Source of the DNA: Geobacter sulfurreducens PCA
GTDB taxonomy: Bacteria > Desulfobacterota > Desulfuromonadia > Geobacterales > Geobacteraceae
Direction of reading: 5' to 3'
Assembly: GCF_000007985.2 (NCBI RefSeq)
Contig: NC_002939.5
Span: 1,680,001 to 1,712,000, forward strand
Length of the DNA stretch: 32,000 bases
Under the pieces are notes generated by a model that worked only from the letters and a program-made list of their open reading frames with translations, was not told where the DNA came from and did no database searches. How positions within the stretch are numbered: the first letter of the stretch is position 1; every line of letters starts with the position of its first letter. This document shows, one piece after another, positions 1 through 32,000 of this stretch. Both the position numbers and the translations under genes were made by a program.

Positions 1-252
1 GACCCGGACACCGGTCTGCCCGTCGAGGTCTTCTGCCGCTTCGGCAAGGCGGGCGGGTGCGGCAGCGCCGTCATGGACGGCCTGACCCGGATGATCACCC
101 GCGGCCTGCTCTCGGGCATGGACCCGCAGGTTGTGGTTCGGGACCTGGCCGGGATATCGTGCCACCTGGGCGCCGCCACCTGTCTCGACGCCCTGGCGGA
201 GGCGGTGGCCCTGGCCCTGGATGAGGGGAAAGGAGAGGACCGTTGCCCCTGA
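1..252 (+). CDS. nrdJ: 3' end of a class II (B12-dependent) ribonucleotide reductase-like gene (partial, starts before the window)
   Basis: Frame 1 is open from base 1 to TGA at 250-252. The translation ..EVFCRFGKAGGCGSAVMDGLTRMITRGLLSGMDPQVVVRDLAGISCHLGAATCLDALAEAVALAL fits the NrdJ C-terminal pattern as I recall it (GK.GGC .. GI.C .. C.DA.A). It is not in the ORF track because it has no start in the window. Confidence 0.55.
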   Translation, partial: DPDTGLPVEVFCRFGKAGGCGSAVMDGLTRMITRGLLSGMDPQVVVRDLAGISCHLGAATCLDALAEAVALALDEGKGEDRCP

Positions 253-3200: not shown

Positions 3201-3433
3201 TACGGGCAGGGGAGCCGGGAGCCGCTGCGGTTCTTCCCGCGCAGCTCCCTGGCCTTTGCCCGCACGGGCGAGATGGCGGCGGCCCGCACCACCTGGGGGG
3301 GAGACTTCTACCCAGAGGGGGACGATCCCTACTATGCGCTCTGCTTCGGCACTGCCGATCCCCTGGACGACGCCTTCCGCGAGACGTCCGTCGCAATCCT
3401 GACCCCCCTGCTGGCCCACCGGGAGGACGAGCG

Positions 3434-3437
<4 letters not shown>
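243..3437 (+). CDS. recC: Exodeoxyribonuclease V gamma subunit RecC
   Basis: 1064-aa ORF. The N-terminus MPLTIYTSNRMEALVEQL matches the conserved RecC N-terminal block. The only in-frame start after the upstream stop is TTG 243, preceded by GGAGAGG. It is the first of three overlapping genes with recB and recD. Confidence 0.9.
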
Positions 3438-7044
<3,607 letters not shown>

Positions 7045-7048
<4 letters not shown>

Positions 7049-8832
7049 GTGCCGACGACCTGCAATTCCGCGACATCGACGCCTGTTTTGCCGACTTCCT
7101 CTGCCGCCTGGCCGGGGGCCGGAACGACGATCTCCATCGGGCCGCCATGCACGCCAGCGCCGCCGTAGGGGCCGGCCACGTCTGCCTGCACCTGGACGAG
7201 GCCTTTGGCAGCAATGGAGCGGCCCTGGCCGTCACCCTCAGGGCCCTGCCGGTGGTGGGCCCGCCCGGTGGCCGCACCCCCCTGATCCTTGACGAAAAGA
7301 ACCGCCTCTACCTTTATCGATACTGGAACTATGAATATCTAGTTGCTGAATTCATAAAGCAAAAATCCGCAGAGCTCCGTCCCGTTTCCCTGCCGCTCCT
7401 GCGGGCGGGTATTGACCGGATCTTCGGGCCGAAGGGGGACGATGCCGTGGACTGGCAGCGGGTGGCTGCCGCGGCCGCGGTGCGGAGCGGCTTTTGCGTC
7501 ATCTCCGGGGGGCCGGGTACCGGCAAGACCTCCACCGTGGTTTCGATCCTGGCCCTGCTCCTGGAGCAGGCCGGCGAGGAGGGGGCGGGCATTGCCCTGG
7601 CAGCGCCCACGGGAAAGGCCGCGGCGCGGCTCGGCGACTCCATCCGCGACGCCCGTCAGCGCCTGGCAGCGGTGACCCCCGTGGCGGAACGGATTCCCGG
7701 CCAGGTCTCCACCATCCACCGGCTGCTGGGGGTGATTCCCGGCTCGGTCCGTTTCCGTCATGACCGGCACAATCCGCTGCCCCACCGGGTAGTGGTGGTG
7801 GACGAGGCCTCCATGGTGCCGCTGCCTCTCATGGCCCGGCTGGTGGAGGCCCTGGCGCCGTCGGCTCGGCTCATCCTCCTGGGGGACCGGGACCAGCTCG
7901 CCTCGGTGGAGGCCGGGGCCGTGCTGGGCGACATCTGCGACACCGGGCGGGCGCACCGGTTCTCGGCCCCGTTCCGGGAGTTCATCCGTGATGCCGCGAG
8001 TGAGGAGATCGAGGGAGAAGCCGGGGACGACGGGAACGACCAGCCGGGTACGCCGGCCGACTCCCTGGTGATCCTGCGCAGGAACTACCGCTTCGGTGCG
8101 GCCAGCGCCATTGGCGCGGCCAGTGCGGCCGTGAACGAGGGCGACGGGGACCGGCTCATGGCGCTTGTGTCAGGAGAAGGGATGGACGGAGGCGTGGCGC
8201 TCCGGCCCGTGCCGCCGGCGGAGCGGCTTGCCGGGGCCCTGGCTGAGAGCGTTGTTGCGGGGTACGGCGAGTATCTGGGGCAGGCGGACCCGGAACAGGC
8301 CCTGGCCTGCTTCGACCGCTTCCGGGTCCTTTGTGCCGTTCGGCAGGGGGAGTACGGGGTGCAGGGGCTCAACCGGGCCATCGAGCGGGTCCTGGCACGG
8401 CAGGGGCTCATCGATGCCGACCGCGTCTGGTATCCGGGGCGGCCGGTCATGGTGACGGTGAACGACTACGGGCTGGGGCTTTTCAACGGCGACATCGGCC
8501 TGGCGGTTGCCGATCCCGCCTTCAGCGGCGGCCTGGCCGTCTGCTTTCCCGCACCAGGCGGCGGAGTCAGAAAGATTTCCCCGGCCCGGCTGCCCGCCCA
8601 CGAAACGGTTTTCGCCATGACGGTCCACAAGAGCCAGGGGTCCGAGTTCGACCGGATTCTGCTGGTGCTCCCCCCCTTCGACAGTCCCGTGCTCACGCGG
8701 GAACTGGTCTACACGGGACTCACCCGCGCCCGGACCGGTGCGGTCATCTGGGCGGACGAGGAGATCCTGCGGTCCGCTGCGGCGCGGAGGAGCGAACGGC
8801 GGTCGGGCCTGCGGGAAGCGTTGTGGGGATGA
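7045..8832 (+). CDS. recD: Exodeoxyribonuclease V alpha subunit RecD
   Basis: 595-aa ORF with Walker A GGPGTGKTS, Walker B VVVDEASMV, and TVHKSQGSEF near the C-terminus. The GTG start overlaps the recB stop (GTGA). Confidence 0.93.
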
Positions 8833-8845
8833 TGGGGTGATGGGG

Positions 8846-8867
8846 GGCGCGGCCGGACAGCCGCGCC
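8846..8867. terminator. GC-rich hairpin between convergent recD and gspB-like genes
   Basis: ggcgcggc-cggaca-gccgcgcc is a perfect 8-bp stem lying between the stop codons at 8832 (+) and 8871 (-). There is no clear U-tract on either side. Confidence 0.35.
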
Positions 8868-8870
8868 GGA

Positions 8871-9563
8871 TCAGTGACCGCCGGAGAGGGGGACGTCGAA
8901 GGTGCGGCCGTCCTTGGAGAAGCGGACCTTGCGCTCGCCGATGGAGACGATGCGGGCGCCCGCCACCACGTTTCCTTCCGCAACCAGGGTGCCATTCACC
9001 ACGGCCCGGCGCAGACGCCGCTCATCCTGCCAGGCGATGCCCGTTACGGACAGATCCGCGGGCTGGGCCACGGCAACGGGTGCCGGTGTGCTTGGGGCGC
9101 GTACCACCGGAGCACTTTCTTCTTCCTCCTCGTCCGGGCGCGGTGCCGCGGGCACGGGGCGCGGAACAGCCGCCGCGGGCGGGGCAGGGACGGGACGCGG
9201 CGCCTCAAGGGCCGGAGCCGGTTGCGGCTGCGGAACCGGGGGCTGCGGCACGGGGGCCGGCGCAGGCGCGGATTCCGTACCCTCGTCCTGGTACCCGGCC
9301 GTCAGCGGGGCCGGCCGGCCGGCGTCCCGGCGTTGTACCGCCGCCGTGCGCGTGGCGTCGTTGCCGCCCTTCAGTAACAGGCCCACTGCCAGACCCGCCA
9401 GGAGGATCACTGCGGCGCCGGCCGCGAACAGCCACCGTTTCCGGCTGTCGGAGCGCTGCGCGCCCCGGTGACCAAGCACGTCGGGACGGATGTTCTCGGT
9501 GGCCCCGCGCCGGGCTTTGCGCTCCTGCTCCATTTTTCTCAGCGCGTCAAGAATCAGGCTCAT
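8871..9563 (-). CDS. gspB: GspB/ExeB-like type II secretion accessory protein
   Basis: 230 aa. It has a GspB-type N-terminus MSLILDALRKMEQERKARR, one TM segment (WLFAAGAAVILLAGLAVGLLL) and a Pro/Ala-rich linker. The C-terminal block is LSVTGIAWQDERRLRRAVVNGTLVAEGNVVAGARIVSIG. Its ATG overlaps the stop of the upstream gspA-like gene (ATGA). Confidence 0.65.
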   Translation of the reverse strand: MSLILDALRKMEQERKARRGATENIRPDVLGHRGAQRSDSRKRWLFAAGAAVILLAGLAVGLLLKGGNDATRTAAVQRRDAGRPAPLTAGYQDEGTESAPAPAPVPQPPVPQPQPAPALEAPRPVPAPPAAAVPRPVPAAPRPDEEEEESAPVVRAPSTPAPVAVAQPADLSVTGIAWQDERRLRRAVVNGTLVAEGNVVAGARIVSIGERKVRFSKDGRTFDVPLSGGH

Positions 9564-11182
9564 TGCGTGCTCCCCTTTGCTCCCGTAAGTCCCGGCGGGA
9601 AAAACCCGCCCGCCCTGCGGTAGAGGAGCGCCAGCGTTTTCTCCCCCGCCTTGCCGTCAGGTTGCAGCCCCTCGGACTGCTGGAAGCGACGCACCCCTTC
9701 CTCGGTAGCTGCATCAAAGTCGCCCGTGGGTTTTTCATCGTAGAAACCGGCCCCCTTCAGCAGCTCCTGAAGCGGCTTCACTCCCTTGCCCCTGCTTCCC
9801 GCCCGGGTCCGTAACGGTATTCCGTGGAAATTCTTCCAGAACATCCAGGCCCGTCCTTCCCAGAACGCCTCGATCTCGCCGCGCGAAAGGGAATCTTTCC
9901 CCGCAACAGCCGGCACCACGGTGAACGAGCCGTTGTTCGCGGCCGTAAGGGTCAGGAACCGGCTGGTGCCGTCGGGAAGCTCCACCTGGAGCAGCACCGG
10001 CGCGTCGAAACGCAGGATGTCGTCCAGGCTCCCCTTGATTTCCGTGGCCGTGAAACCGCGCCGTGCCGCCAGGGTGCGGATATCGTCGCTGCGCCCGGCC
10101 CGGTCGATGGCGGGTGCCTGCCATGCCCCCAGCAGGGCGTTGGCCGCGGTCACCAGGTTGTCCCCCGCGGCCGTTGCCGTCAGGGATTTGCGGACAGCGT
10201 CGCCGGTCAGGGGAGGCGGCTGCGGCGCCGGGGCTGGCGTTGCCTCTCCGGCCACGGCCGGGGGCGGTGGCTCCTTGTCCGCGCGGTTGAACACGGCAAC
10301 GCCGATGCTTATCGCCGCGGCCAGGGTCAGAAGCTGCAGGGTCTTGCGGGGGATGGGAAAGCGCCGCCCCTCCTCCTGGCGCACGTCGATGATGGCTTCG
10401 GCCGCCATTGACGCGGTGATCTCCCTGCTGTCCCTGGTGTAGGCCAGCAGGAGCGCCCGGTCGCACACGGCATTGATCAGCCGGGGCAGCCCTTTGGAGA
10501 AGCGGTAGATCTTCTTCACGGCCCCCAGGGTGAACGCCACCGGCTCCCGGCCGCCGCCCGCCACCCTGATCCGGTGCCGGATGTACTCCCGCGTATCGTC
10601 GCATCCCATGGGCTCCAGGTGGTAGCGCACCGTGATCCGCTGGTTGAGCTGGCGCAGTTCTTCCAGCGCCAGCAGCCGCTTCAGCTCCGGCTGGCCCACC
10701 AGCACGATCTGGATCAGCTTGTCCCGCTCGGTCTCCAGGTTGGAGATGAGCCTGATGTGCTCCAGCACCTCGGCGGAAAGATTCTGGGCCTCGTCGATCA
10801 CCAGCACCACCGTGCGGCCGGCCGAGCTTTCCTCCAGCAGGAAACGGTTCAGGGCCTCCAGCAACTCGCCCCGCTCCGAGCTGGCGCAGGGGAGGCCGAA
10901 CTCCCGGTTGATCCCCTGGAGCAGCCCTAGGGACGACAGGGTCGGGTTGAAGATGAGGGCGGTGCGGTGCGTGGCCGGGTCGAGCTGGTTGAGGAAGGTC
11001 CTGATCAGGGTGGTCTTGCCGGTCCCCACCTCGCCCGTCAGCTCGATGAACCCCGCATGGGTGTCAATGCCGTAGAGCAGGTGGGCGAACCCCTCCTGAT
11101 GGTGGGTGCTCAGAAAGAGAAAATCAGGGTTCGGGGTGAGCGCAAAGGGTTGTTCGGTAAAGCCGAAATGGTCTCGATACAT
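9560..11182 (-). CDS. gspA: GspA/ExeA-like AAA+ ATPase with C-terminal peptidoglycan-binding domain
   Basis: 540 aa with Walker A GEVGTGKTT and Walker B VVLVIDEAQNL. The N-terminus MYRDHFGFTEQPFALTPNPDFLF is typical of ExeA. A central hydrophobic segment is followed by a C-terminal PG-binding-like motif GDFDAATEEGVRRFQQSEGLQPDGKAGEKTLALL. Confidence 0.85.
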   Translation of the reverse strand: MYRDHFGFTEQPFALTPNPDFLFLSTHHQEGFAHLLYGIDTHAGFIELTGEVGTGKTTLIRTFLNQLDPATHRTALIFNPTLSSLGLLQGINREFGLPCASSERGELLEALNRFLLEESSAGRTVVLVIDEAQNLSAEVLEHIRLISNLETERDKLIQIVLVGQPELKRLLALEELRQLNQRITVRYHLEPMGCDDTREYIRHRIRVAGGGREPVAFTLGAVKKIYRFSKGLPRLINAVCDRALLLAYTRDSREITASMAAEAIIDVRQEEGRRFPIPRKTLQLLTLAAAISIGVAVFNRADKEPPPPAVAGEATPAPAPQPPPLTGDAVRKSLTATAAGDNLVTAANALLGAWQAPAIDRAGRSDDIRTLAARRGFTATEIKGSLDDILRFDAPVLLQVELPDGTSRFLTLTAANNGSFTVVPAVAGKDSLSRGEIEAFWEGRAWMFWKNFHGIPLRTRAGSRGKGVKPLQELLKGAGFYDEKPTGDFDAATEEGVRRFQQSEGLQPDGKAGEKTLALLYRRAGGFFPPGLTGAKGSTQ

Positions 11183-15560: not shown

Positions 15561-16482
15561 GGGTCGGACCAAGCTAACATAACGATATTTCAACAATTAC
15601 ACCTCATTTTTGGGAGATTTTTACCCTTAGAAGCGCATTTTCAGGGTCATAATTGAGCACTTAACATGGCACGAGCGAATCGGCACTACATACCGGGTCA
15701 GGTGTGGCACATCACACACCGATGTCACAAGAAAGAGTTTCTTCTCAAGTTTGCCAGAGACCGGCGTCGGTGGCTGCACTGGCTCTTCGAGGCGAAGAAG
15801 CGGTTCGGGCTGCAGGTTCTGAATTATGCCGTCACCTCAAATCATGTTCATCTGCTGGTAGTGGATACGAAACCAGAGGTCGTGGCAAAGAGCATCCAAC
15901 TGATCGCCGGAAGAACCGCGCAGGAATTCAATCAGCGGAAAGATCGAAAAGGGGCGTTCTGGGAAGATCGGTACCACGCAACCGCGATCGAGAGAAACGA
16001 GCATCTCGTCCGTTGCCTCGTTTACATCGATCTGAACATGGTCCGCGCCGGTGTCGTAACGCATCCAGCGGAATGGGAAATGAACGGATACAACGAGATT
16101 CAGAATCCGCCGGACCGATACGCCATTATCGACAGGCACAGTCTTTTCGATGCTTGCGGTTTCCCGGATTACGGGAGTTTTGCCGAACAGCACCGTAAAT
16201 GGGTTGAGGATGCACTGAAGAAGGGCATGAATCGGGAAGGCCATTGGACCGAAAGCATTGCAGTCGGCAGTTCGGCTTTTATCACAGACACGCAACGGAA
16301 GATGGGGTGCAGCGCCAAGGGACGGAAGCTGGAAGAACAGGTGGACGGAGCGAGTTTCCTGAGAGAGGATGCGGAGCCTTACCATGCCCATTTTACCGGC
16401 AAAAGTGAGGTTCTAAGCCCTGAAAATGCATTCTTTTGGGACGATTACGATGTAGTTCCAGTTGGTTAGCGTGGTCCGACCC
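15561..16482 (+). mobile_element. REPtron-like unit: RAYT (Y1 HUH transposase) gene bounded by inverted terminal repeats and inverted REP-like hairpins
   Basis: The left end gggtcggaccaagctaac (15561-15578) is the reverse complement, with 2 mismatches, of the right end gttagcgtggtccgaccc (16465-16482). Imperfect subterminal hairpins at 15623-15647 (acccttagaagcgcattttcagggt) and 16417-16442 (gccctgaaaatgcattcttttgggac) are also inverted copies of each other. Confidence 0.7.
15666..16469 (+). CDS. rayT: REP-associated tyrosine transposase (RAYT, IS200/IS605-like Y1 HUH family)
   Basis: 267 aa with N-terminal R.NRHYIPGQVWHITHR, the HUH motif SNHVHLLV, FWEDRYHA, and the catalytic-Tyr block VYIDLNMVRAGVV. 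This is the standard COG1943-type layout. Confidence 0.85.
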   Translation: MARANRHYIPGQVWHITHRCHKKEFLLKFARDRRRWLHWLFEAKKRFGLQVLNYAVTSNHVHLLVVDTKPEVVAKSIQLIAGRTAQEFNQRKDRKGAFWEDRYHATAIERNEHLVRCLVYIDLNMVRAGVVTHPAEWEMNGYNEIQNPPDRYAIIDRHSLFDACGFPDYGSFAEQHRKWVEDALKKGMNREGHWTESIAVGSSAFITDTQRKMGCSAKGRKLEEQVDGASFLREDAEPYHAHFTGKSEVLSPENAFFWDDYDVVPVG

Positions 16483-22540: not shown

Positions 22541-22594
22541 TGCTGTTTGCTGCGGAGTTGCAGGCGCGATGCGCCCGCCGCGGACAGGGAGACG

Positions 22595-24580
22595 ATGTCC
22601 ATGCAGGTCACGAGCCTCAAAGCAAAATTCATTTCCGTCATCGTCCTCATCAGTTTAGCGGTGGGGGGGCTGACCCTCTTCGCCTTTGACACCAGCACGT
22701 CCGGCATCATTGACGATCTGGCTCTCCGGTTCGCTACCAAGGAGGCGCTGCTGGAGAAAAACAAGGTCATCTCCGTCATCGAGCGGGAGGTGGCACTGGC
22801 CCGGATGATGGCCCGGGACGTCACCCTCAGGCACTGGGCATCGGACGAGGGGAACCGCGAACTGCAGCGCGCGGCCTTTGCGGAGCTGGAAAACTACCGC
22901 ACCCTCTACCGGGACAAAAGTTTCTTCATTGCCCTGGCGGCGTCGAACCATTATTACGTCTATGACAAGCGAAACGGACACGGCCGTGTCGAAATGGTGA
23001 CACTTGACGGGTCCAAGCCCCACGATCGCTGGTTCTTCGAGGGGCTTCGCTCAATCGACGACTACGCCCTGAACCTGGATTACAACGCCACCCTGCAGGA
23101 GATCAAGGTCTGGTTCAACGCGGCCATGACCGACGGCAGCGGCCGAAAGATCGGCATCTGCGGCGGCGGCATCACCATTTCCGACTTCCTCAATCAGGTG
23201 GTGCACACCCGTCAGAAGGGGCTTTCAACCATACTGATGGACCGCGCCGGGGTGGTGCAGGCCCACGAGGACCGGAAAGTGGTGGAGCATAACGCCAACA
23301 CCCGCGACGTGGACCGAAAGATCACGATCTTCACCCTCATGGGCGATCCGGCGCGGGAAGCGCAGGTGCGGGGGGCCATCGAGTCCCTGGCGGCCGGGCG
23401 GAGCGAGGTGGAGGCGTTCCCGGTGCGGTTCGGCGGCAAGAGCTATCTCATGGCGATTTCGTTCCTGGAGGGGATGGGCTGGTTCAACGTAGTTCTGGTC
23501 GACGTATCCCGCGTCATCAGCATGAAGCAGTTCCTCCCCATCATCGCGGTCATGTCCCTGTCGCTGCTGTTGGGCATCCTGGCCATCGGCTTCCTGATAA
23601 ACCGGATGGTGCTGACGCCCCTGGGGAGACTGTCCGCCGCGTCCCGGGAGATTGCCGCCGGGCGGTACGATATTTCGCTGCCCGTGACCGGCCGGGACGA
23701 ACTGGGGGAGCTGACCGGCTCGTTCAATGCCATGAGTGCCATGGTCCTGGACCACACCACCAATCTCGAAGCCAGGGTCAGGGAACGCACCGACGAACTT
23801 TCCGCGGCCAACCGACTGCTGGAGGATTCCCAGCGCAGGATCATGGAGAGCATCACCTATGCCCGCATGATCCAGACCTCGATCCTGCCCGACCGGGAGT
23901 CGCTGGAGCGCTGCCTGGGCGACCATTTCATCCTCTACCGGCCCAAGGAGCCGGTTGGGGGGGATTTCTACTACCTGCGCGAGTTCCCGGACCACTTCCT
24001 GCTGGCGGTGATCGACTGCACGGGCCACGGCATTCCGGGCGCGTTCATGACCATGACCGTTAACGCGGTGCTGAACCACGTGGTGGATGTCTGCTGCAAC
24101 GACGATCCGTCCCGCATCCTGGCGGAGCTCAATCGCGTGCTGCGGAACACCCTGCACCTGCGGGACGTGGATGCCGGACTCGACATCGCTCTCTGCATGG
24201 TGGAGCGGCGAGCGGGCCGGTTGACCTTCGCCGGGGCGGGGCTTCCGCTGGTGCTGGTTTCCGGCGGAGAGGTGCGGGAGGTGCGCGGTGACCACCAGCG
24301 CGTGGGCTACAAGGGCTCCCGGATCGACTACCGGTACACCAACCATGTGCTGACCCCGGCAGCCGGAGACAGCTGCTACCTGACGACCGACGGCCTGCTG
24401 GACGAGCCGGGCGGAGTCAAGGGATACGGTTTCGGCTCGGAGCGGCTCAGGATGATCCTGGCCGATCATGCGCACCTCGCCATGCCGGCCCAGGCCGAGG
24501 CTGTCGAGGCGGCCCTGGACGCCTATCGGGGCGACCATCGCCAGCGCGACGACATTACCTTGGCGGGATTCCGTTTCTGA
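22595..24580 (+). CDS. siaA: SiaA-like membrane sensor: periplasmic Cache-like domain, HAMP, PP2C (SpoIIE/RsbU-type) phosphatase
   Basis: ATG 22595 follows GGGAGA. TM1 (FISVIVLISLAVGGLTLFAF) is followed by a periplasmic region of about 290 aa, then TM2. Next come HAMP (LTPLGRLSAASREIAAGRYD..ELGELTGSFNAM), a coiled coil, and the PP2C motifs GGDFYY, AVIDCTGHG and DDITLAGFRF. Confidence 0.85.
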   Translation: MSMQVTSLKAKFISVIVLISLAVGGLTLFAFDTSTSGIIDDLALRFATKEALLEKNKVISVIEREVALARMMARDVTLRHWASDEGNRELQRAAFAELENYRTLYRDKSFFIALAASNHYYVYDKRNGHGRVEMVTLDGSKPHDRWFFEGLRSIDDYALNLDYNATLQEIKVWFNAAMTDGSGRKIGICGGGITISDFLNQVVHTRQKGLSTILMDRAGVVQAHEDRKVVEHNANTRDVDRKITIFTLMGDPAREAQVRGAIESLAAGRSEVEAFPVRFGGKSYLMAISFLEGMGWFNVVLVDVSRVISMKQFLPIIAVMSLSLLLGILAIGFLINRMVLTPLGRLSAASREIAAGRYDISLPVTGRDELGELTGSFNAMSAMVLDHTTNLEARVRERTDELSAANRLLEDSQRRIMESITYARMIQTSILPDRESLERCLGDHFILYRPKEPVGGDFYYLREFPDHFLLAVIDCTGHGIPGAFMTMTVNAVLNHVVDVCCNDDPSRILAELNRVLRNTLHLRDVDAGLDIALCMVERRAGRLTFAGAGLPLVLVSGGEVREVRGDHQRVGYKGSRIDYRYTNHVLTPAAGDSCYLTTDGLLDEPGGVKGYGFGSERLRMILADHAHLAMPAQAEAVEAALDAYRGDHRQRDDITLAGFRF

Positions 24581-24638
24581 CGGTCCGCCGGGACGCCGCG
24601 AACAGTGTTCGCGCCATTGCTATCAACAGGGAGGAATC

Positions 24639-25169
24639 ATGGATCTCTTTCAGCTCCGGGAACAGTTCTCCAGGGACGGCATCCTCATGTGCTTCAACGG
24701 CCCCTTCTCTCACAGCATCATCGAGGAGATCGGCATTGCCATCAGGAACCACTTGGCCGCCGAGAACATTGCCCGCATGGCGGTTCAGGACGTGTTCGCC
24801 GTCTACATCGAGATGACCCAGAACGCCCGCAACTATCTGACCCGCCGGGACATCTCCCCGGCCGAGGCCGGTTCGGCCACCATCGTCATTGCCCGGCGGG
24901 ACGAGTTCTACTCCGTCACCTCGGGCAACGTGATCCTGAATGATGATGTGGAGCAGCTGCGCACCCGGATTGACCACATCAAGGCCCAGGCGCCGGACGA
25001 GCTGAAAAAGCTCATCCGGCAGCAACTGCGTGCCGAGGTCCAGCCCGGCGCGATGGGGGCGGGCATCGGCCTCATGGAAATGGCTAAGCGGGCCTCCGGC
25101 CGGCTGGAGTACAGCGTCCGCCCCGTCGACGGCCGGCATTCGTTTTTCACGCTGACAGCGCACATCTAG
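24639..25169 (+). CDS. siaB: SiaB-like protein kinase (anti-sigma-factor/HATPase-like partner-switching kinase)
   Basis: 176 aa from ATG 24639, which follows GGGAGGA. ILMCFNGPFSHSIIEEIG.., VYIEMTQNARNY and GAMGAGIGLMEMAKRAS (G-box) fit the SiaB-type kinase family. Its position between the PP2C and DUF1987 genes also fits. Confidence 0.75.
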   Translation: MDLFQLREQFSRDGILMCFNGPFSHSIIEEIGIAIRNHLAAENIARMAVQDVFAVYIEMTQNARNYLTRRDISPAEAGSATIVIARRDEFYSVTSGNVILNDDVEQLRTRIDHIKAQAPDELKKLIRQQLRAEVQPGAMGAGIGLMEMAKRASGRLEYSVRPVDGRHSFFTLTAHI

Positions 25170-25179
25170 GAGGCTCCGC

Positions 25180-25560
25180 ATGCGAGTGTTCGATACCATA
25201 CAGCAGACCGTCTCAACGCCCCTGGTCAGCTATGAGCCCGGGGGGCGGGTCCTGGCGATTTCGGGCGAATCCTACCCGGAAAACTCCTTCGAGTTCTACG
25301 CACCCATCGCCCAGTGGGTGAAAGCGGCCCTCGCCGATCCCGAGGGGCTCACGCTGGACATCAACGTCAGCTACATGAACAGCAGCAGCACCAAGTGCAT
25401 GCTTGATCTGCTCGACCTGTTCGAGGACGCCTACGGCCGGGGAGCAGCCGTGTCCATCACCTGGCGCTACGACAGGGAGAATCCCCGGTCCCTTGATCTT
25501 GCAGAGGAGTTCAAGGAAGAGGTCACCCTGCCGTTTGCCATCGTGGAACTGGAAGAATGA
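25180..25560 (+). CDS. siaC: SiaC-like DUF1987 regulatory phosphoprotein
   Basis: 126 aa. LAISGESYPENSFEFYAPIAQWV and INVSYMNSSSTKCMLDLLDL are hallmark DUF1987 blocks, and the latter contains the likely phospho-Thr. AGGAGG lies upstream. Confidence 0.85.
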   Translation: MRVFDTIQQTVSTPLVSYEPGGRVLAISGESYPENSFEFYAPIAQWVKAALADPEGLTLDINVSYMNSSSTKCMLDLLDLFEDAYGRGAAVSITWRYDRENPRSLDLAEEFKEEVTLPFAIVELEE

Positions 25561-25567
25561 GGTGGGT

Positions 25568-26737
25568 ATGCCGCGAAAGAAGAAAACCGTCGAAGACCCC
25601 GCGCTGACCCGTGCCTTGAAGGTCATGGAGGCGGGCGCGTTGCCGGATGCTGACCTGGCCGCCGAATTCGCCACCCTGGCCGAGAGTTACGGGAAGCTGC
25701 TGCGCAAATTCAACAAGACGCTCGTGATCAGCGATGCCTACGAGGCCCAGCATCAGGCAATGGCCAAGAAGCTGGAGGAGGCCACCTGGAAGTATCGTCA
25801 GTTGAAGGATGTGGCGCTCCCGATCTGCATGTACTGCAAGAAGATCCGCTCCGACGACGACTACTGGCAGCGGCTGGAAACGTTTTTCTGCAACCATGCC
25901 GATATCATGTTCAGTCACGGGATCTGCCCGGACTGCATCAAGACCGCCTATGAGAAGATGGGGATGAACAGGAGGGCCATGCCGCTGCCGGATGCTGCCG
26001 TGACCGGACAGCCGGCGGCGTCTCCCGAGCGGCAGCCGGTGGAGGACGACGCCCTCAGGGAGATGCGGGCGCTGGTGCGCCGGAGTGCCTTTGACGGGAG
26101 TCCGGTTGCGCCCGAGGTGGAACAGTTCGTCGAAAAGTACGGCAAGCTGCTGCGCCGCTTCAGCAAGATCGTCTCCATCAGCGACAGCTACCAGTCACAG
26201 CTCCGGGAGCTCAACGCCCGGCTGGAGCTGATGGCCCGCACCGATCTTCTCACCGGTCTCGCCAACCACTGGGAGATGGTGATGCGACTGGCAGCGGAGC
26301 AGAGTCGTTCGGAGCGAAACGGGAAGGTCTTTTCGATCGTGCTGGCGGATATCGATCACTTCAAGAAGGTCAACGACACCCACGGGCACCAGGCCGGCGA
26401 CCGGGTCATCCGGGGGATCGCCGACACCCTGCGTACCAATATCCGCCGCGAAGACATCTGCAGCCGGTGGGGAGGGGAGGAGTTCCTCATCATACTGCCG
26501 GAGGCGGATTTGCCGCGGGCCGGGGCCGTGGCGGCGAAGCTCCTCGCCAAGGTGCGGAATACGGTGGTCCCGTGGGATGGGCGCGACATCCGGGTCACCG
26601 TGAGCATCGGCTATGGCACCAGCGAACCCGGCATGAGCGTCGATGAACTGATCAGGCGAGTCGACGATGCCCTCTACAGCGCCAAGGCCGCGGGCCGCGA
26701 CCGGTTCGCCGCGGCCGGTTCCCGCGCCGACGTCTGA
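25568..26737 (+). CDS. siaD: SiaD-like diguanylate cyclase (GGDEF) with a duplicated N-terminal stalk helix and an inserted Cys/His module
   Basis: 389 aa from ATG 25568. The GGDEF domain has DIDHFKKVNDTHGHQAGD, the RRED I-site and RWGGEEF. The ORF-track start at 25403 overlaps siaC and is rejected. Confidence 0.85.
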   Translation: MPRKKKTVEDPALTRALKVMEAGALPDADLAAEFATLAESYGKLLRKFNKTLVISDAYEAQHQAMAKKLEEATWKYRQLKDVALPICMYCKKIRSDDDYWQRLETFFCNHADIMFSHGICPDCIKTAYEKMGMNRRAMPLPDAAVTGQPAASPERQPVEDDALREMRALVRRSAFDGSPVAPEVEQFVEKYGKLLRRFSKIVSISDSYQSQLRELNARLELMARTDLLTGLANHWEMVMRLAAEQSRSERNGKVFSIVLADIDHFKKVNDTHGHQAGDRVIRGIADTLRTNIRREDICSRWGGEEFLIILPEADLPRAGAVAAKLLAKVRNTVVPWDGRDIRVTVSIGYGTSEPGMSVDELIRRVDDALYSAKAAGRDRFAAAGSRADV

Positions 26738-26776: not shown

Positions 26777-29700
26777 TCACCCCTGCAGCGCCTCCCTGAT
26801 TTTTCCATCCAGTGTTGTAATGGTGAATGGCTTCTGCAGAAAGTGCAGGTCCTGTCCCAGCTCACTCCGATTGGACAGGATGTCCGAAGTGTAGCCCGAC
26901 ATGAAGAGGATTTTTATGTCCGGATTGGCCGCGCGCAGCTGGACTGCCAGGTCGTGGCCGTTCATACCGGGCATGATGACGTCGGTAATCAGCAGGTTGA
27001 TGGACCCCGCATGTGTCACGGCACTCTGCAGGGCCTCCTCCGGCGAGTTCACCGGCAGAACCTTGTACCCCAGCTTTTCGAGCATTGCTGCGCCCATGTG
27101 CATGATGGCTGCTTCGTCTTCTACGAACAGGATGGTTTCCGTCCCGCCGATAATCTCGGGCGCTGCCGGGATCGGGGCATCGGTCGGGGCGCTTGCGGCG
27201 GGGAAATAGATACGGAACGTGGATCCGTTACCCGGTAAGCTGCTGACCCTGATCTGGCCGCCGCATTGCTGGACTATGCCGTAGACCGTTGCCAGTCCCA
27301 GGCCGGTGCCGTGGCCCAGTTCCTTGGTGGTGAAGAACGGCTCGAAGATGTGTTCAAGCAGTTCCGGCCCGATGCCGCAGCCCGTGTCGCTCACCTCCAG
27401 CAGCACGTAGTCGCCGGGGGGGATGTCGTCCGTGCCGCTGGCCTCCCCGAAGGTTCCATTCGAGGTCTGGATGTTGATCTCCCCCGTGCCGGCAATCGCG
27501 TCCCGGGCGTTCACGCACAGGTTGACCAGGATCTGGTCCAACTGGGAGGGGTCGATCTTAACCCGCCTGAGGTTATAGCCCGGATTCCAGCCCAGCTTGA
27601 TATTTTCGCCCAGCAGCCTGCGCAGCATCTTGAGCATGCTGGTAATGGTGTCGTTCAGGTCCAGCACCTTGGGCACGATGGTCTGCTTGCGCGAGAACGT
27701 GAGCAACTGCTTGGTGATTTCGGCGGACCGCTTGGCGGCGCCCTGAATCTCTTCCAGGTTGTGATACAGGGGATTGTCCCGGTCCGTCTGCATCAGCGCG
27801 AGCTCGGTCCGGCCGATGATGATGCTCAGCATGTTGTTGAAATCGTGGGCCACGCCGCCGGCCAAACGGCCGATGGAATCCATTTTCTGCGCCTGGAAGA
27901 GCTGTTGCTCCATTCTGCGGTGTTCCGTGATATCCAGGGCGATGGAGAGGAGCCGTTTTCGGCCCGCAACGGGGATGATCGTTCCCCAGTACTTGCAGAG
28001 CACCTTTGCGCCCGATTTGGATCGCGTCTCCAGTTCCAGATCCTGGATCGAGCCGTTCTTCAGCATCATTTCCTTCAACCGTGTCCGGTCGGATGCACCG
28101 AGCCACCCGAGGGACACGGCGGTGTTGGCCAAGACCTCTTCCCTGCTGAAGCCGGAGATGTCGAGGAACCGCTGGTTCACATCCAGGTACCGGCCATCCT
28201 CGATGGTGCTGATGGTGATCATGAGCGGGGCGTTGTTGAAGGCCGACGAGAATTTCTCGTCGCTCTCGCGGAGCGAGTCGTGGACTTGCTTGCGCTCGGC
28301 AATATCCCAGACGAGGTCCGCAAAACGGGAAACAACGGCGATGTCTTCCCGGGTGTAGTCGGTCTTCTTGTTACCGATGCCGAGGATTCCGGCAATCTTG
28401 TCATGGCGCATGATCGGCATGGTCAGCTGCCGGTTCACCGGGGCGTGCCCGAGGGGGAGACCCTTGCGGTGGGGCAGCGACGCATAGTCATTATGGATGA
28501 CCGGCTGGCGCAGAGAGGCACAGTCGGTCCAGACGCCGGCCCGGCTGATGTCGTAATGCCTGTGGCTGCACTCGGCCGTACACAGTTCGGCCGTGCGCGA
28601 AGACCAGGCATGAAGGGTGATGGTGCGCTGATCCTCCTGCAGCAGATGGAAAAAACCGAGTTCGCTGCCGGTAAGCTCTTCGAGACGGTCGAGCGTCTCG
28701 GTCAGCAGTTCGTCCAGCGAGTGGGAAACGCTGTACTCGATGAGGTGCGTCCTGGCCAGCAGGAGCTGTGCCTCCTTTTTCTCCGCGGTGATGTCCCGCC
28801 AGATGCAGTGGTAGACGTTCTTTCCCTTGATGTGAGAATACTGGGCCCTGACCAGGATGGACCTCTGCTCGCCCTGCTTGGTGCGCTGCAGGGTTTCGAA
28901 CTCGTCGTATCCGTCGCGCATAATTTTCTGAATGCGGTTCCTGGTTTGCTCCGGCGACTCGACGATGTCGATGTCGGATATCTTCAGGCGGCTGAACTCT
29001 TCCCGCGTATAGCCGAGCTGACGGCAAGCCTGGTCATTGAAGTCGATGAGGGTGGCGTTTTCGGGGTCGATGATGACGACGCCATAAGGGTTCTGCTCGA
29101 AAAGCGTGCGGTGGAGAAGCTCGCTTTCCCTGAGCCGGTCCTCCAGTTGCTTGCGTTCGCTGATGTCCGTGCAGGCTCCGCGGTAGCCGACCAGGGTTCC
29201 GTGCTCATCCAGTATCGGCAGGGCGTTGGTGCTCATCCAGATGGTCCTGCCGTCCACGGCCACAACGGGATGAACCACCTCTTCCACTATCGTTTTGCTC
29301 GCGAACATCTCCAAAAACGATGTCTTGAATCTCTCGCGCCCCTCTGTGGGGTGGATTTCGTAAAAACGCATCGCACCGACCAGTTCGTTCGGTAGATACC
29401 CGAACACCGACTCGACCACGGGGCTCACATAGGTGAACAGGCCGGTCACGTCGATTTCCCAGGTGATGGTGCGGCTCTGGGCGGCAAGCTGATTGTAGCG
29501 CGCTGCACTTTCCTCGAGTTCCTTTTCCAGCTGATACTTCTTGTGCCGTGCGGAGAGCAGGCCGCCGAGCAGCGCCGTGCACAGGGGGTAGATCAGGATG
29601 ACGGGGAGGGCGAGAGACGCCATGGTCCTGGCAATGAGTTCCGTGGGCAGGAGCAGCATACACAGGATCATCCCCAGGTGGACCACCACGCCGAACAGGT

Positions 29701-30115
29701 ACAGCTCGCCGAATGAGAATGCCTTTGCCTGCCGCAGCCGGTAGTGCCGCCACGCCAGGCCGCATGCGCCGGAAAGGACGATGGTGGTAATTCCCATTGC
29801 CGTCCCCCCGCCGCCGAGGGCAAGGCGGTAGGTAGCGGCGATGGCCATGGCGATTACCGTGGGAATGGTGCCGAAGAAGAGGCCGGTAAGCCCCAGTAGG
29901 ATGGTGCGGGTGTCGAAAATAATGCCGGGACCGAATATGACCGGTGTCGCCATGAGAGCCACCGCAATGGCACCGGTGGTGACTCCCGAAACTATTCGGT
30001 TCATCAGGGGTGTCTGAATGTTCCGGCGGTAGGACAGGATGTCGTAAATCAGACCCAGCGACAGCAATAAGGCGGCATTGTTGACAAGCCCCAGGATGAT
30101 GCGTTCATTCACCAT
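26777..30115 (-). CDS. Hybrid sensor histidine kinase: multi-TM (5TMR-LYT-like) N-terminus, PAS-PAS-GAF-PAS, HisKA, HATPase_c, C-terminal receiver
   Basis: The probable start is ATG 30115 (MVNERIILGLV..), which leads into about six hydrophobic helices. Phospho-His box GGVAHDFNNML; ATPase boxes NLCVNARDA, DTGCGI and GTGLGLATV; receiver ILFVEDE..LLITDVIMPGMNG..K. Confidence 0.9.
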   Translation of the reverse strand: MVNERIILGLVNNAALLLSLGLIYDILSYRRNIQTPLMNRIVSGVTTGAIAVALMATPVIFGPGIIFDTRTILLGLTGLFFGTIPTVIAMAIAATYRLALGGGGTAMGITTIVLSGACGLAWRHYRLRQAKAFSFGELYLFGVVVHLGMILCMLLLPTELIARTMASLALPVILIYPLCTALLGGLLSARHKKYQLEKELEESAARYNQLAAQSRTITWEIDVTGLFTYVSPVVESVFGYLPNELVGAMRFYEIHPTEGRERFKTSFLEMFASKTIVEEVVHPVVAVDGRTIWMSTNALPILDEHGTLVGYRGACTDISERKQLEDRLRESELLHRTLFEQNPYGVVIIDPENATLIDFNDQACRQLGYTREEFSRLKISDIDIVESPEQTRNRIQKIMRDGYDEFETLQRTKQGEQRSILVRAQYSHIKGKNVYHCIWRDITAEKKEAQLLLARTHLIEYSVSHSLDELLTETLDRLEELTGSELGFFHLLQEDQRTITLHAWSSRTAELCTAECSHRHYDISRAGVWTDCASLRQPVIHNDYASLPHRKGLPLGHAPVNRQLTMPIMRHDKIAGILGIGNKKTDYTREDIAVVSRFADLVWDIAERKQVHDSLRESDEKFSSAFNNAPLMITISTIEDGRYLDVNQRFLDISGFSREEVLANTAVSLGWLGASDRTRLKEMMLKNGSIQDLELETRSKSGAKVLCKYWGTIIPVAGRKRLLSIALDITEHRRMEQQLFQAQKMDSIGRLAGGVAHDFNNMLSIIIGRTELALMQTDRDNPLYHNLEEIQGAAKRSAEITKQLLTFSRKQTIVPKVLDLNDTITSMLKMLRRLLGENIKLGWNPGYNLRRVKIDPSQLDQILVNLCVNARDAIAGTGEINIQTSNGTFGEASGTDDIPPGDYVLLEVSDTGCGIGPELLEHIFEPFFTTKELGHGTGLGLATVYGIVQQCGGQIRVSSLPGNGSTFRIYFPAASAPTDAPIPAAPEIIGGTETILFVEDEAAIMHMGAAMLEKLGYKVLPVNSPEEALQSAVTHAGSINLLITDVIMPGMNGHDLAVQLRAANPDIKILFMSGYTSDILSNRSELGQDLHFLQKPFTITTLDGKIREALQG

Positions 30116-30308
30116 TGCACCCGTGAATTGACCTCGCGATGCACTGCGGACACCCATACTACCACAGGTAAATCGCGGGCATACATAATTTTGTTAACGA
30201 GATGCGAATGCGTATACGAAAACCATGCCATGCATGGAATGTCTGGTTGGTAACGATTTAAGGATGTGGATACGCTGAAGGTAACAGTGACGACAGTGGC
30301 TGCCAGAA

Positions 30309-30346
30309 ACACGAAGGGGGAGGCTTTCGCGCCTCCCCCTTCGTGT
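30309..30346 (-). terminator. Rho-independent terminator after the DUF4382 gene
   Basis: acacgaagggggaggc-tttcgc-gcctcccccttcgtgt is a perfect 16-bp stem starting 6 nt past the stop codon (30352-30354). The minus-strand tail is UUUCUGG. Confidence 0.6.
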
Positions 30347-30351
30347 AGTGC

Positions 30352-31281
30352 TCAGGGAAGGGGAATCAGGGGGATGGTACCCAGGTCGGTTGCCTGTCCG
30401 GTCACCACGGAAACGGCTGAAGAGGAGTAGACCTGGAAGCCGTTGGTAGTGATGAATGCCTTGTACGTCACCGGCAGAGTGTTCGGCGGAACGAACGCCG
30501 CAAAGGGGGCCTGCCACGCGCCGCCAGTGTAGTTACTGAAGATCAAGCCAGCGGCAATGGGATCGTTGTCGTTGGTTGATCCGCGGCGTTTTACCGACAC
30601 CGTTGCGCTTGACCAGGGCATGAATGTCGACATGACGTTTCCGGAAATGGATCCGAACTGGGTAAGGGGATCGGACAGGTGCACGACGCGAATCCCCGTC
30701 GGCTTCAGGTTGTAGTCGCCATTGCCCCTCGCAACGATGGCGGTATTGGGGTCGAAGTCTATCATGACCGCATTGATGACCCCGGCCCTGACTTCTACCG
30801 GGCCAAGAACCTTAACCCCGGATTGCTGGCCGCTGGGAGTCGTCAGGGGGATCTGCGTGACGGGATCAGCCTTCAGGGTCAGGTAGTTTGCCGGTGCCGG
30901 GTCGAGAACAAGCCGGATCTGGCTGTAGGCTCCCGCAGGGAGAACCGCCTCGCCCAGCGCTTCCTGCACGAACTGCAATTGCATCACGTCGATGACCCTG
31001 GATGGGGTGAATCGGGCGATCACCGGCAGGCCGGGGTCGTTGTCGGGCGCATTCTCCCTGCCCGCCGGCACGACACGTATTTCCCTGATGCTGATGATGA
31101 CCTTGTCGAACGAATCGCTCTGTTTGTCGGTAATGGAAAGTTTCAGGGTTCCCGTTGACGCCGCAGTGCTTGCCGATCCGCCATCCCCTCCGCCGCCGCA
31201 TCCGTGCATCAGCATCAGTGCCGCAAGCGCGGCGGCAAGAATCCCCAGTACTCCCATAGCTGACTTTTTCGCGCGTACCAT
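30352..31281 (-). CDS. DUF4382-family lipoprotein
   Basis: ATG 31281 follows AAAGGAG. The signal peptide MVRAKKSAMGVLGILAAALAALMLMHGC is followed by a Gly-rich linker. LKLSITDKQSDSFDKVIISIREIRVV.. and AGAYSQIRLVL are typical DUF4382 blocks. The upstream GTG at 31317 falls in the terminator tail and is rejected. Confidence 0.8.
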   Translation of the reverse strand: MVRAKKSAMGVLGILAAALAALMLMHGCGGGGDGGSASTAASTGTLKLSITDKQSDSFDKVIISIREIRVVPAGRENAPDNDPGLPVIARFTPSRVIDVMQLQFVQEALGEAVLPAGAYSQIRLVLDPAPANYLTLKADPVTQIPLTTPSGQQSGVKVLGPVEVRAGVINAVMIDFDPNTAIVARGNGDYNLKPTGIRVVHLSDPLTQFGSISGNVMSTFMPWSSATVSVKRRGSTNDNDPIAAGLIFSNYTGGAWQAPFAAFVPPNTLPVTYKAFITTNGFQVYSSSAVSVVTGQATDLGTIPLIPLP

Positions 31282-31319
31282 TGTCCACTCCTTTCCCCGT
31301 TTCGTCTGGACATCCACGC

Positions 31320-31440
31320 AAAAAAAAACGGGATGCCGAATTTGTGGTGATAGTTCGGCATCCCGGCTGTCTCGGTGAGACCCTGTGGGCTTTCCGCCCC
31401 ATCCTCGCGGATGGTTTAGTAGTATCGTGTATCACGCTCA
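31320..31440 (-). promoter_or_regulatory. Candidate GEMM-I (cyclic-di-GMP-I / cGAMP class) riboswitch with intrinsic-terminator expression platform
   Basis: The minus-strand RNA reads ACUAAACCAUCC-GCGA-GGAUGGGGCGGAAAGCCCACAGGGUCUCACCGAGACAGCCGGGAUGCCGAA. It shows the AAACC lead-in, a 6-bp hairpin capped by a GYRA tetraloop, a G.CG.AAAGCC junction, a second hairpin and the AGCCGGG.UGCC 3' block of GEMM-I. The terminator CGGGAUGCCGAA-13 nt-UUCGGCAUCCCG plus U9 (31365-31320) shares its 5' arm with the aptamer 3' end. Confidence 0.55.
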
Positions 31441-31451
31441 GTTGTGAAGAA

Positions 31452-31479
31452 AGTCTAACCAGTGATATCTCGATGTCAA
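31452..31479 (-). promoter_or_regulatory. Candidate sigma70 promoter for the riboswitch-DUF4382 transcript
   Basis: On the minus strand: TTGACA (31479-31474), a 16-nt spacer, then TAGACT (31457-31452). This places the transcription start a few nt upstream of the aptamer. Confidence 0.4.
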
Positions 31480-31576
31480 ACTGCGGCTTCACTGGACGGT
31501 GGCAGCCGGAGGGGATGGCATTTGCAGGGAATGACGATAGACTTGATTGGAATGGCTAACTTCAAGGAGGAATGGC

Positions 31577-32000
31577 ATGGACACCATGGGACAGTATCAG
31601 CAGCTGGTTGTCACGTATGCAACGGTAATCGGGACAAAGATCATCGCCGCCATTTTGTTCTGGGTTGTCGGCCGCTGGCTGATCCACCTGGTGCAGCGGA
31701 TGCTTCATCAGGTTCTGGAGAAGCAGAAAGTCGATCCCAGTCTGATGCGGTATCTGGGCAACTTCCTCGGAGTGGCTCTGAACATCGTGCTGGTGGTGGC
31801 GATACTCGGCTACTTCGGGGTGCAGACCACCACCTTCGCCGCATTGGTGGCCGGCGTCGGCATTGCCATTGGCGCTGCCTGGGGTGGGCTCCTTTCCAAC
31901 CTGGCGGCCGGGGCGTTCCTTCTGGTGTTGCGCCCCTTCAAGGTGGGGGATTTCGTCACCGCCGGAGGCATCACCGGCACCGTAAACGAGATAGGCCTCT
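31577..32000 (+). CDS. mscS: Small-conductance mechanosensitive channel (MscS family), 5' part, runs off the window end
   Basis: ATG 31577 lies 6 nt after AAGGAGG. The translation is MDTMGQYQQLVVTYATVIGTKIIAAILFWVVGRWLI..DPSLMRYLGNFLGVALNIVLVVAILGYFGVQTTTFAALVAGVGIAIGAAWGGLLSNLAAGAFLLVLRPFKVGDFV, which is the MscS TM3/pore signature. It is absent from the ORF track because there is no stop in the window. Confidence 0.85.
   Translation, partial: MDTMGQYQQLVVTYATVIGTKIIAAILFWVVGRWLIHLVQRMLHQVLEKQKVDPSLMRYLGNFLGVALNIVLVVAILGYFGVQTTTFAALVAGVGIAIGAAWGGLLSNLAAGAFLLVLRPFKVGDFVTAGGITGTVNEIGL

Follow-up and report, generated by a model that had tools for sequence, protein, structure and literature searches.

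The archetype of the c-di-GMP-I (GEMM-I) riboswitch family, RF01051, is Vc2 of Vibrio cholerae, which senses c-di-GMP and carries G20, a G21-C46 pair and a long P3 with a tetraloop receptor. G. sulfurreducens has 17 GEMM-I riboswitches, 12 of which were shown to bind cGAMP (PMC8835794). An adenine, A14/A20, is the determinant of cGAMP recognition (PMC6140456, PMC6456294) and pairs with the adenine of cGAMP (PMC6140456); when it was replaced in a paralogue, Gmet_0970 (A20G), selectivity moved from cGAMP to c-di-GMP (PMC6140456, PMC6456294). Aptamers with A20 may still take c-di-GMP by way of a protonated adenine, and Vc2 G20A binds cGAMP and c-di-GMP with similar affinity (PMC6140456). Natural A20 aptamers have also been reported as dual-binding, namely Cbe 1-2 and, in G. 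sulfurreducens, the OmcST riboswitch. Dual binding by Vc2 G20A and by some natural aptamers of this kind means that A20 alone is no proof of selectivity.

Two characterized riboswitches are closest to the element described here. Gs1761 (pgcA, GSUR3008; crystal structures 4YAZ/4YB0) belongs to the GEMM-Ib subclass and is a paralogue, in the same genome, that lies upstream of a cytochrome gene. Its A14 (the equivalent of A20) contacts the adenine of cGAMP, it acts as an ON switch via an anti-terminator, it is GacA-dependent, and its measured affinity is ~0.5-1 nM with ~1200-fold selectivity. The pilM riboswitch of G. metallireducens, which controls the pilMNOP operon, is a transcriptional ON switch. 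With P1 complete it binds cGAMP with a KD of ~0.25 uM, and capture of the 3' side of the aptamer by the terminator strand puts an end to binding (PMC9262584).

We analyzed the leader of GSU1556, a DUF4382 gene on the minus strand of a 32-kb stretch of G. sulfurreducens DNA (hereafter, the window). The original prediction had presented this leader as a candidate riboswitch; the element is real but not new, as it is the annotated riboswitch GSUR3007. The annotated feature (PCA 1715006-1715123, 118 nt) maps to window positions 31316-31433, which cover aptamer and terminator. PCA and the window also agree in the distance between the start codons of GSU1556 and GSU1557 (296 nt; 31281 and 31577 in the window) and in the length of the GSU1556 CDS (930 nt). 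GSU1556 is counted among "13 total GEMM-Ib riboswitches" (Table S1 of PMC8835794), it has a second GEMM-Ib listing in PMC6456294, and gsu1556 is named among genes with GEMM-I elements (PMC10599522). The exact GSU1556 protein was found on many contigs, five of them >1 Mb; among the matches listed, the best match to the DUF4382 protein was 94% identical and came from G. sulfurreducens YM18 (locus L002, AP017912). In the PCA annotation, GSUR3007 is described as a "cyclic diguanylate-responsive riboswitch".

A search of both strands of the entire window against 4227 Rfam families returned a single match at gathering thresholds, to RF01051. It lies at 31354-31430 on the minus strand, is full-length (model positions 1-87) and scores 40.4 bits, above the gathering score of 35 (E = 9.6e-5), confirming that the GSU1556 leader is a GEMM-I element, as had been claimed. 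The narrow margin of 5 bits over the cut-off reflects the departure of this Geobacter group from the consensus of the family. The related c-di-GMP-I-GGC variant (RF03167) was rejected at 38.3 bits against a gathering score of 59, and other low-score Rfam matches within 31200-31600 (ROSE_3, Pyrobac-1 and lncRNA fragments; E 6-10) were attributed to chance. The 160-nt region also folded ~5 standard deviations better than 200 shuffled sequences (z = -4.97), none of which folded equally well.

All elements of the leader are on the minus strand, in the order promoter-like site, aptamer, terminator, ribosome-binding site and ATG. The promoter-like site (31479-31452) consists of TTGACA (31479-31474), a 16-nt spacer and TAGACT (31457-31452), matching the consensus at 10 of 12 positions, and transcription is predicted from it to start near 31445. 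Its -35 hexamer is identical in YM18, where the -10 hexamer is TAAACT. Another promoter-like site, at 31448-31421, falls inside the aptamer and was judged a chance match. The regulated gene, taken from ribosome-binding site through CDS, occupies 31293-30352; the ribosome-binding site, AAGGAGU, is at 31293-31287 and the CDS (930 nt, 309 aa) runs from the ATG at 31281 to 30352.

The full aptamer, made up of the RF01051 core and the pairs of P1, spans 31435-31347. Its outer P1 helix pairs GUGAUA (31435-31430) with UAUCAC (31352-31347), and the inner P1 pairs, which are drawn in the related RF03167 model, are C31427-G31356 and G31426-C31357. An AAACC lead-in, read directly in the minus strand, is followed by the P2 arm (31419-31394), as placed by the RF01051 alignment. 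P2 is closed by C31419-G31394 (model pair 12-37) and next to it U31418.G31395 (model pair 13-36), and its hairpin comprises CCAUCC (31414-31409), a GCGA tetraloop (31408-31405) and GGAUGG (31404-31399). The closing pair stands for G21-C46 of Vc2, so the predicted replacement of that pair by C-G is borne out. Next comes the junction GGCGGAAAGCC (31398-31388), which keeps the A47 equivalent, A31393, just 3' of P2. The short P3 arm, AGCCCACAGGGUCUC-ACC-GAGACAGCCGGGAU, was placed at 31391-31360 by the same alignment; it reads GGGUCUC-ACC-GAGAC and then AGCCGGGAUGCC, and C31366, within AGC, is the C92 equivalent. At 31361 an A produces a G.A mismatch in P3 (a "v" mark in the RF01051 alignment), which on paper weakens this helix. 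The lead-in, P2, junction, P3 and terminator were thus each found where the original prediction had put them.

The leader is a type 2 GEMM-I element, with a GYRA loop on P2 and a P3 that lacks the 11-nt tetraloop receptor; P3 has 4 nt in place of the model's 16 and is too short to hold one. The type 2 assignment had been coupled to the description "receptor-less", and this second part is unproven: P3 contains a GUCU/AGAC helix that is invariant among orthologs and could be a docking site for the GYRA loop. Compared with Vc2, the leader shares the three-helix architecture, the A47 and C92 equivalents and a GNRA-capped P2, and differs by A20, the C-G pair, the GYRA loop, the short P3 and its predicted ligand, cGAMP.

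To place the element among its relatives, a profile of 14 DUF4382 homologs was used to collect 44 loci from species-representative genomes (Geobacter, Geomonas, Citrifermentans, Geotalea and many MAGs). RF01051 was then run on 40 loci, comprising 39 of these 44 and the YM18 locus. A match above threshold lay upstream of the DUF4382 gene and on its strand at 37 of the 40 (YM18 included), with scores of 37.7-49.8 bits. The riboswitch thus stays associated with the DUF4382 gene in Geobacter, Geomonas and their relatives. An apparent 77-nt insertion downstream of the gene at one locus (L047) proved to be a run of N in the assembly.

The 37 ortholog leaders were aligned with that of the window (n = 38). 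The equivalents of G20, G21, C22, G45, C46, A47 and C92 were A, C, U, G, G, A and C, respectively, in every sequence. All 38 likewise had a GYRA loop on P2, the same P2 closing pairs and the P3 pairs GUCU/AGAC. Three pairs of the P2 stem showed two-sided changes (UA in 17 and CG in 15 of the 38). In outer P1, most sequences kept the four inner pairs, with GC/AU/GU exchanges (at one pair, AU in 21, GU in 14 and GC in 3), and the outermost pair was unpaired in 25 of 38. Across the alignment, 94.1% of pair cells were paired, against 37-45% when partners were slid by 1-3 columns; two-sided changes occurred at six pairs, and the observed covariation score was reached by none of 500 shuffles. Covariation is nonetheless modest in this set because the aptamer is ~84% conserved and the sequences are closely related, so the assignment to the family is based on the Rfam model rather than on new covariation. 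Nearly all orthologs also have a hairpin that overlaps the 3' strand of the aptamer, beginning at the C92 equivalent or directly beside it and leading to a U-run; the simple U-run rule used in this tally truncated three of the hairpins, and the U-tracts of two are weak. At position 31361 the window and a single further locus have A; the other 36 of the 38 have U.

The expression platform is an intrinsic terminator (31365-31320) identified by reading and folding the sequence. It is formed by CGGGAUGCCGAA (31365-31354), a 13-nt loop and UUCGGCAUCCCG (31340-31329), followed by U9 (31328-31320), and its stem is a perfect 12 bp (-20.6 kcal/mol). A simple terminator scan missed it because the 13-nt loop exceeds the 8-nt limit of the scan, and this is no evidence against the terminator. 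Its 5' arm joins CGGGAU, the 3' strand at the base of P3, to GCCGAA, the 3' strand of inner P1, in which CG makes the inner P1 pairs with CG of CACGAU (31427-31426); the 3' strand of outer P1 sits in the terminator loop. As had been proposed, CGGGAUGCCGAA is thus shared by both folds, and since the 5' arm of the terminator is the 3' strand of the aptamer, the two structures are mutually exclusive. By nearest-neighbor energies, in which tertiary and ligand contributions are ignored, the minimum free energy of the full leader, terminator included, is -45.3 kcal/mol and that of the ligand-free aptamer secondary structure is -17.3 kcal/mol, so that the terminator fold is ~28 kcal/mol more stable. 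Termination would be the default and bound ligand would have to hold the aptamer for read-through; therefore, the leader is predicted to be an ON switch. Published work on the GSU1556 locus and its close paralogues agrees with this direction and with cGAMP as the ligand, both of which the original prediction had pointed to.

The equivalent of Vc2 G20 is A31420, as predicted; it aligns to RF01051 model position 11, within CUACUAAACC, and is the last unpaired base ahead of the first helix in that alignment. The replacement of G20 by A that characterizes GEMM-Ib is thus present. We consider it very likely that the GSU1556 leader is a GEMM-Ib riboswitch that senses 3',3'-cGAMP selectively and acts by ON-type attenuation. 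That cGAMP is the ligand, and which contacts it makes, is taken from the literature and from homology to Gs1761, pilM and Gmet_0970, which make cGAMP the most likely ligand. By analogy with these systems, cGAMP would bind the three-helix junction once the aptamer (31435-31347) has been transcribed, its adenine contacting A31420, its guanine pairing with C31366 and A31393 stacking between the two bases. Binding would lock P1 and the base of P3, and the gene, OFF by default, would be turned ON. Without ligand, CGGGAUGCCGAA would pair with UUCGGCAUCCCG to form the 12-bp terminator, followed by U9, and transcription would stop ahead of the gene.

The likeness to pilM extends over most of the aptamer. 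Of 81 nt of the aptamer core, 73 (90%) are identical between pilM and the window; both carry UACUAAACC, GGAAAGCC, GAGACAGCCGGGAUGCCGAA and the P1 strand UAUCAC, and both carry GGGAUGCC, with an A at the equivalent of 31361 and hence the same G.A mismatch. The switching strand of pilM lies ahead of the 3' strand of P1, an unusual layout that the window shares. They differ in that the P1 strand is also taken into the terminator stem in pilM (AUCAC/GUGAU) but lies within the terminator loop in the window, and in that the window riboswitch controls a DUF4382 gene rather than the pilMNOP operon. YM18 differs from the window at the same point: with U at 31361, P3 has a G.U pair and the terminator, 14 bp long and followed by U6, has a U.U mismatch, compared with G.A, a perfect 12-bp terminator and U9 in the window. 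The two terminator hairpins are nevertheless similar in energy (-22.7 and -20.6 kcal/mol, respectively).

Around the riboswitch, the window has the gene order of PCA: GSU1557 (MscS), which is divergent, GSU1556 (DUF4382), GSU1555 (histidine kinase), GSU1554 (GGDEF) and GSU1553 (SiaC-like). The MscS-type channel gene lies upstream, with its start at 31577, and a 5TM-LytS/PAS/GAF histidine kinase-receiver hybrid is encoded downstream of GSU1556. Further downstream, on the plus strand and 4-9 kb from the riboswitch, is a four-gene SiaABCD-like diguanylate cyclase module encoding a SpoIIE/HAMP phosphatase, a DUF6272 protein, SiaC and a GGDEF protein. One gene product of the neighborhood matches a Pfam family that is named after GSU1558. 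Against the NCBIfam SiaD model the GGDEF protein scores 244 bits, under the equivalog cut-off of 290. Hypr GGDEF enzymes, which make cGAMP, have Ser where canonical enzymes have Asp; natural Ser/Thr enzymes are exclusively GGDE[F/Y], and those with Asp and GGEEF are diguanylate cyclases (PMC6456294). The neighboring protein carries VNDTHGHQAGDRV (NDTHGHQAGD) and GGEEF, so the original prediction was right that this SiaD-like cyclase keeps the canonical Asp, the diguanylate cyclase pattern of PMC6456294. Its make-up is predicted to be that of a canonical c-di-GMP synthase and not of a Hypr cGAMP synthase. The SiaD-like cyclase would accordingly not be the source of cGAMP; the ligand would instead be supplied by the Hypr GGDEF enzyme GacA (GSU1658), which is known in G. 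sulfurreducens (PMC6456294) and is encoded elsewhere in the genome, its gene not lying within the 32-kb window.

Published RNA-seq data bear on the ligand. GSU1556 levels were 26 in the wild type, 36 in the esnD deletion and 8 in the gacA deletion (q = 1, low expression), and those of the riboswitch RNA were 31, 46 and 12, respectively (PMC6456294, supplement 1). GSU1556 is thus ~3-fold lower upon deletion of gacA, the cGAMP synthase gene, and higher upon deletion of esnD; both shifts run in the direction expected of a GacA-dependent gene, neither being significant (PMC6456294). Published capture on cGAMP beads gave no enrichment of GSU1556 or of any other riboswitch transcript.

Selective sensing of cGAMP has to be weighed against an aptamer to which cGAMP and c-di-GMP would each bind at physiological levels, in which case the adjacent SiaD-like cyclase, or others, would also turn on the DUF4382 gene. 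Vc2 G20A and some natural A20 aptamers (Cbe 1-2, OmcST) do take both ligands, and at a distance of 4-9 kb there is a canonical diguanylate cyclase module. Yet in the esnD deletion, where c-di-GMP is down and cGAMP is up, GSU1556 rose from 26 to 36 and the riboswitch RNA from 31 to 46, and in the gacA deletion, where c-di-GMP is unchanged, they stood at 8 and 12. The aptamer core is, moreover, 90% identical to that of pilM, itself studied as a cGAMP switch, and the published list places GSU1556 under GEMM-Ib. On this evidence we regard dual binding as unlikely. Equally doubtful is a local circuit between the riboswitch and the SiaABCD-like c-di-GMP module, whether through a dual-ligand aptamer that reads local c-di-GMP or through c-di-GMP from the SiaD-like enzyme inhibiting GacA via its I-site and thereby lowering DUF4382 expression.

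The genome annotation has GSUR3007 as an ordinary riboswitch responsive to cyclic diguanylate, and the Rfam family that it matches is itself named c-di-GMP-I. A c-di-GMP-selective aptamer is nevertheless highly improbable, since G20 is replaced by A in all 38 aligned sequences, the window included, and expression in the mutants tracks cGAMP rather than c-di-GMP. Finally, that the leader has decayed into a ligand-independent, constitutive attenuator, which might be read from a G.A mismatch at 31361 found in only 2 of 38 sequences, a terminator free of the mismatch seen in YM18 and the low expression of GSU1556, is hardly credible given that the functional pilM riboswitch shares GGGAUGCC, the terminator energy is near that of YM18 (-20.6 against -22.7 kcal/mol), all ligand-contact positions are intact, and expression differs ~4-fold between the esnD and gacA deletions.

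The gene under the control of this predicted cGAMP switch appears to stand alone. Directly 3' of the GSU1556 stop codon is a GC-rich hairpin (30345-30305, minus strand), read from the sequence as a 15-bp stem, CACGAAGGGGGAGGC / GCCUCCCCCUUCGUG, followed by UUUCU. This hairpin probably ends a one-gene transcript, and GSU1556 looks monocistronic. Expression of GSU1555 was flat (8/8/9, the gacA deletion included), which is consistent with a one-gene GSU1556 transcript. The GSU1556 product matches DUF4382 (PF14321) with E = 9.7e-35 and is annotated as a lipoprotein. Its sequence gave nothing usable against the PDB (E = 0.039). The AlphaFold model, of moderate confidence (pLDDT 70, pTM 0.57), places a signal helix at the N terminus; the Cys is followed by a disordered, Gly-rich linker, and the body is all-beta, with two sandwich-like domains. 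Foldseek matches of this model in the PDB were weak (TM ~0.2) and mostly to "putative cell adhesion" proteins of Bacteroides, pilins and Ig-like receptors. The model suggests a surface beta-sandwich lipoprotein, a statement of fold class and not of function.

The riboswitch itself adds no new biology, since it carries the annotation GSUR3007 and already figures in the G. sulfurreducens cGAMP regulon; its GEMM-Ib class, ligand type and ON logic were recognizable from the raw sequence without tools. If the doubtful local circuit were true, cGAMP signaling would have the DUF4382 protein as a core effector at the surface. The strict pairing of riboswitch and DUF4382 gene across the Geobacteraceae makes this protein worth studying for cGAMP-controlled surface attachment or metal respiration.

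The P3 helix of the GEMM-Ib riboswitch upstream of the DUF4382 gene (window positions 31377-31381 paired with 31369-31373, minus strand; columns 66-69/76-79 of alignment A3) was examined across the window leader and its 37 orthologs. The P3 pairs G-C, U-A, C-G, and U-A (GUCU/AGAC) are invariant in all 38 sequences, while the other helices do vary. One possible reading is that the GYRA tetraloop docks into this helix; if so, "receptor-less", the term applied to this aptamer in the original prediction, would be too strong. A single-base difference was found at 31361 (minus strand), which is A in the window vs. U in 36 of the 38 sequences. The A creates a G.A opposition that weakens P3, and the terminator mismatch is lost. 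The characterized pilM cGAMP ON-switch of G. metallireducens has the same A at the equivalent position, whereas the related strain YM18 has U; its terminator is also extended by two outer G-C pairs, and its U-tract is shorter than that of the window.

A second promoter-like match, TTCACA-16-GAUACU (31421-31448, minus strand), lies within the leader and aptamer. A transcript starting there would have a truncated P1. The match was judged to be due to chance. Directly 3' of the DUF4382 stop codon is a very strong 15-bp hairpin (CACGAAGGGGGAGGC...GCCUCCCCCUUCGUG; 30305-30345, minus strand) with a weak U-tail (UUUCU). The metagenome-assembled locus L047 has a run of Ns exactly at this site.

The DUF4382 gene, which is probably under cGAMP control, and the gene for a large 5TM-LytS/PAS/GAF hybrid kinase (26777-30157, minus strand) adjoin a four-gene SiaABCD-like module (22547-26737, plus strand) encoding a SpoIIE/HAMP/Cache phosphatase, a DUF6272 protein, SiaC, and a GGDEF protein. 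The latter has Asp/GGEEF and scored 244 bits against the NCBIfam SiaD model, below the 290 cut-off. Elsewhere in the window are a RecC/RecB/RecD operon (243-8832, plus strand), an IS200-like Y1 transposase gene (15666-16469, plus strand), and a 358-aa ORF without a Pfam match (8738-9814, plus strand), which overlaps an ExeA-like AAA/peptidoglycan-binding gene (9560-11182) on the opposite strand.

Further GEMM-I aptamers, or matches to a variant family, occur at DUF4382 loci of relatives. L014 has two more of the A20 type in tandem (674-750 and 894-969, minus strand), on the opposite strand and upstream of the divergent gene. Downstream of the DUF4382 gene in L018 is a c-di-GMP-I-GGC variant match (2611-2689, plus strand; 61.6 bits vs. 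59) with G at position 20. The DUF4382 gene of Geomonas genomes is closely followed on its 3' side by another GEMM-I, which shares the A20 signature (AAUACUCAACC) and has a terminator of its own (L024, 2819-2895; L026, 2833-2909; L027, 2812-2888; L028, 2827-2903; L042, 2965-3041; all plus strand). These genomes thus have two genes in succession, each with its own predicted cGAMP-type switch.
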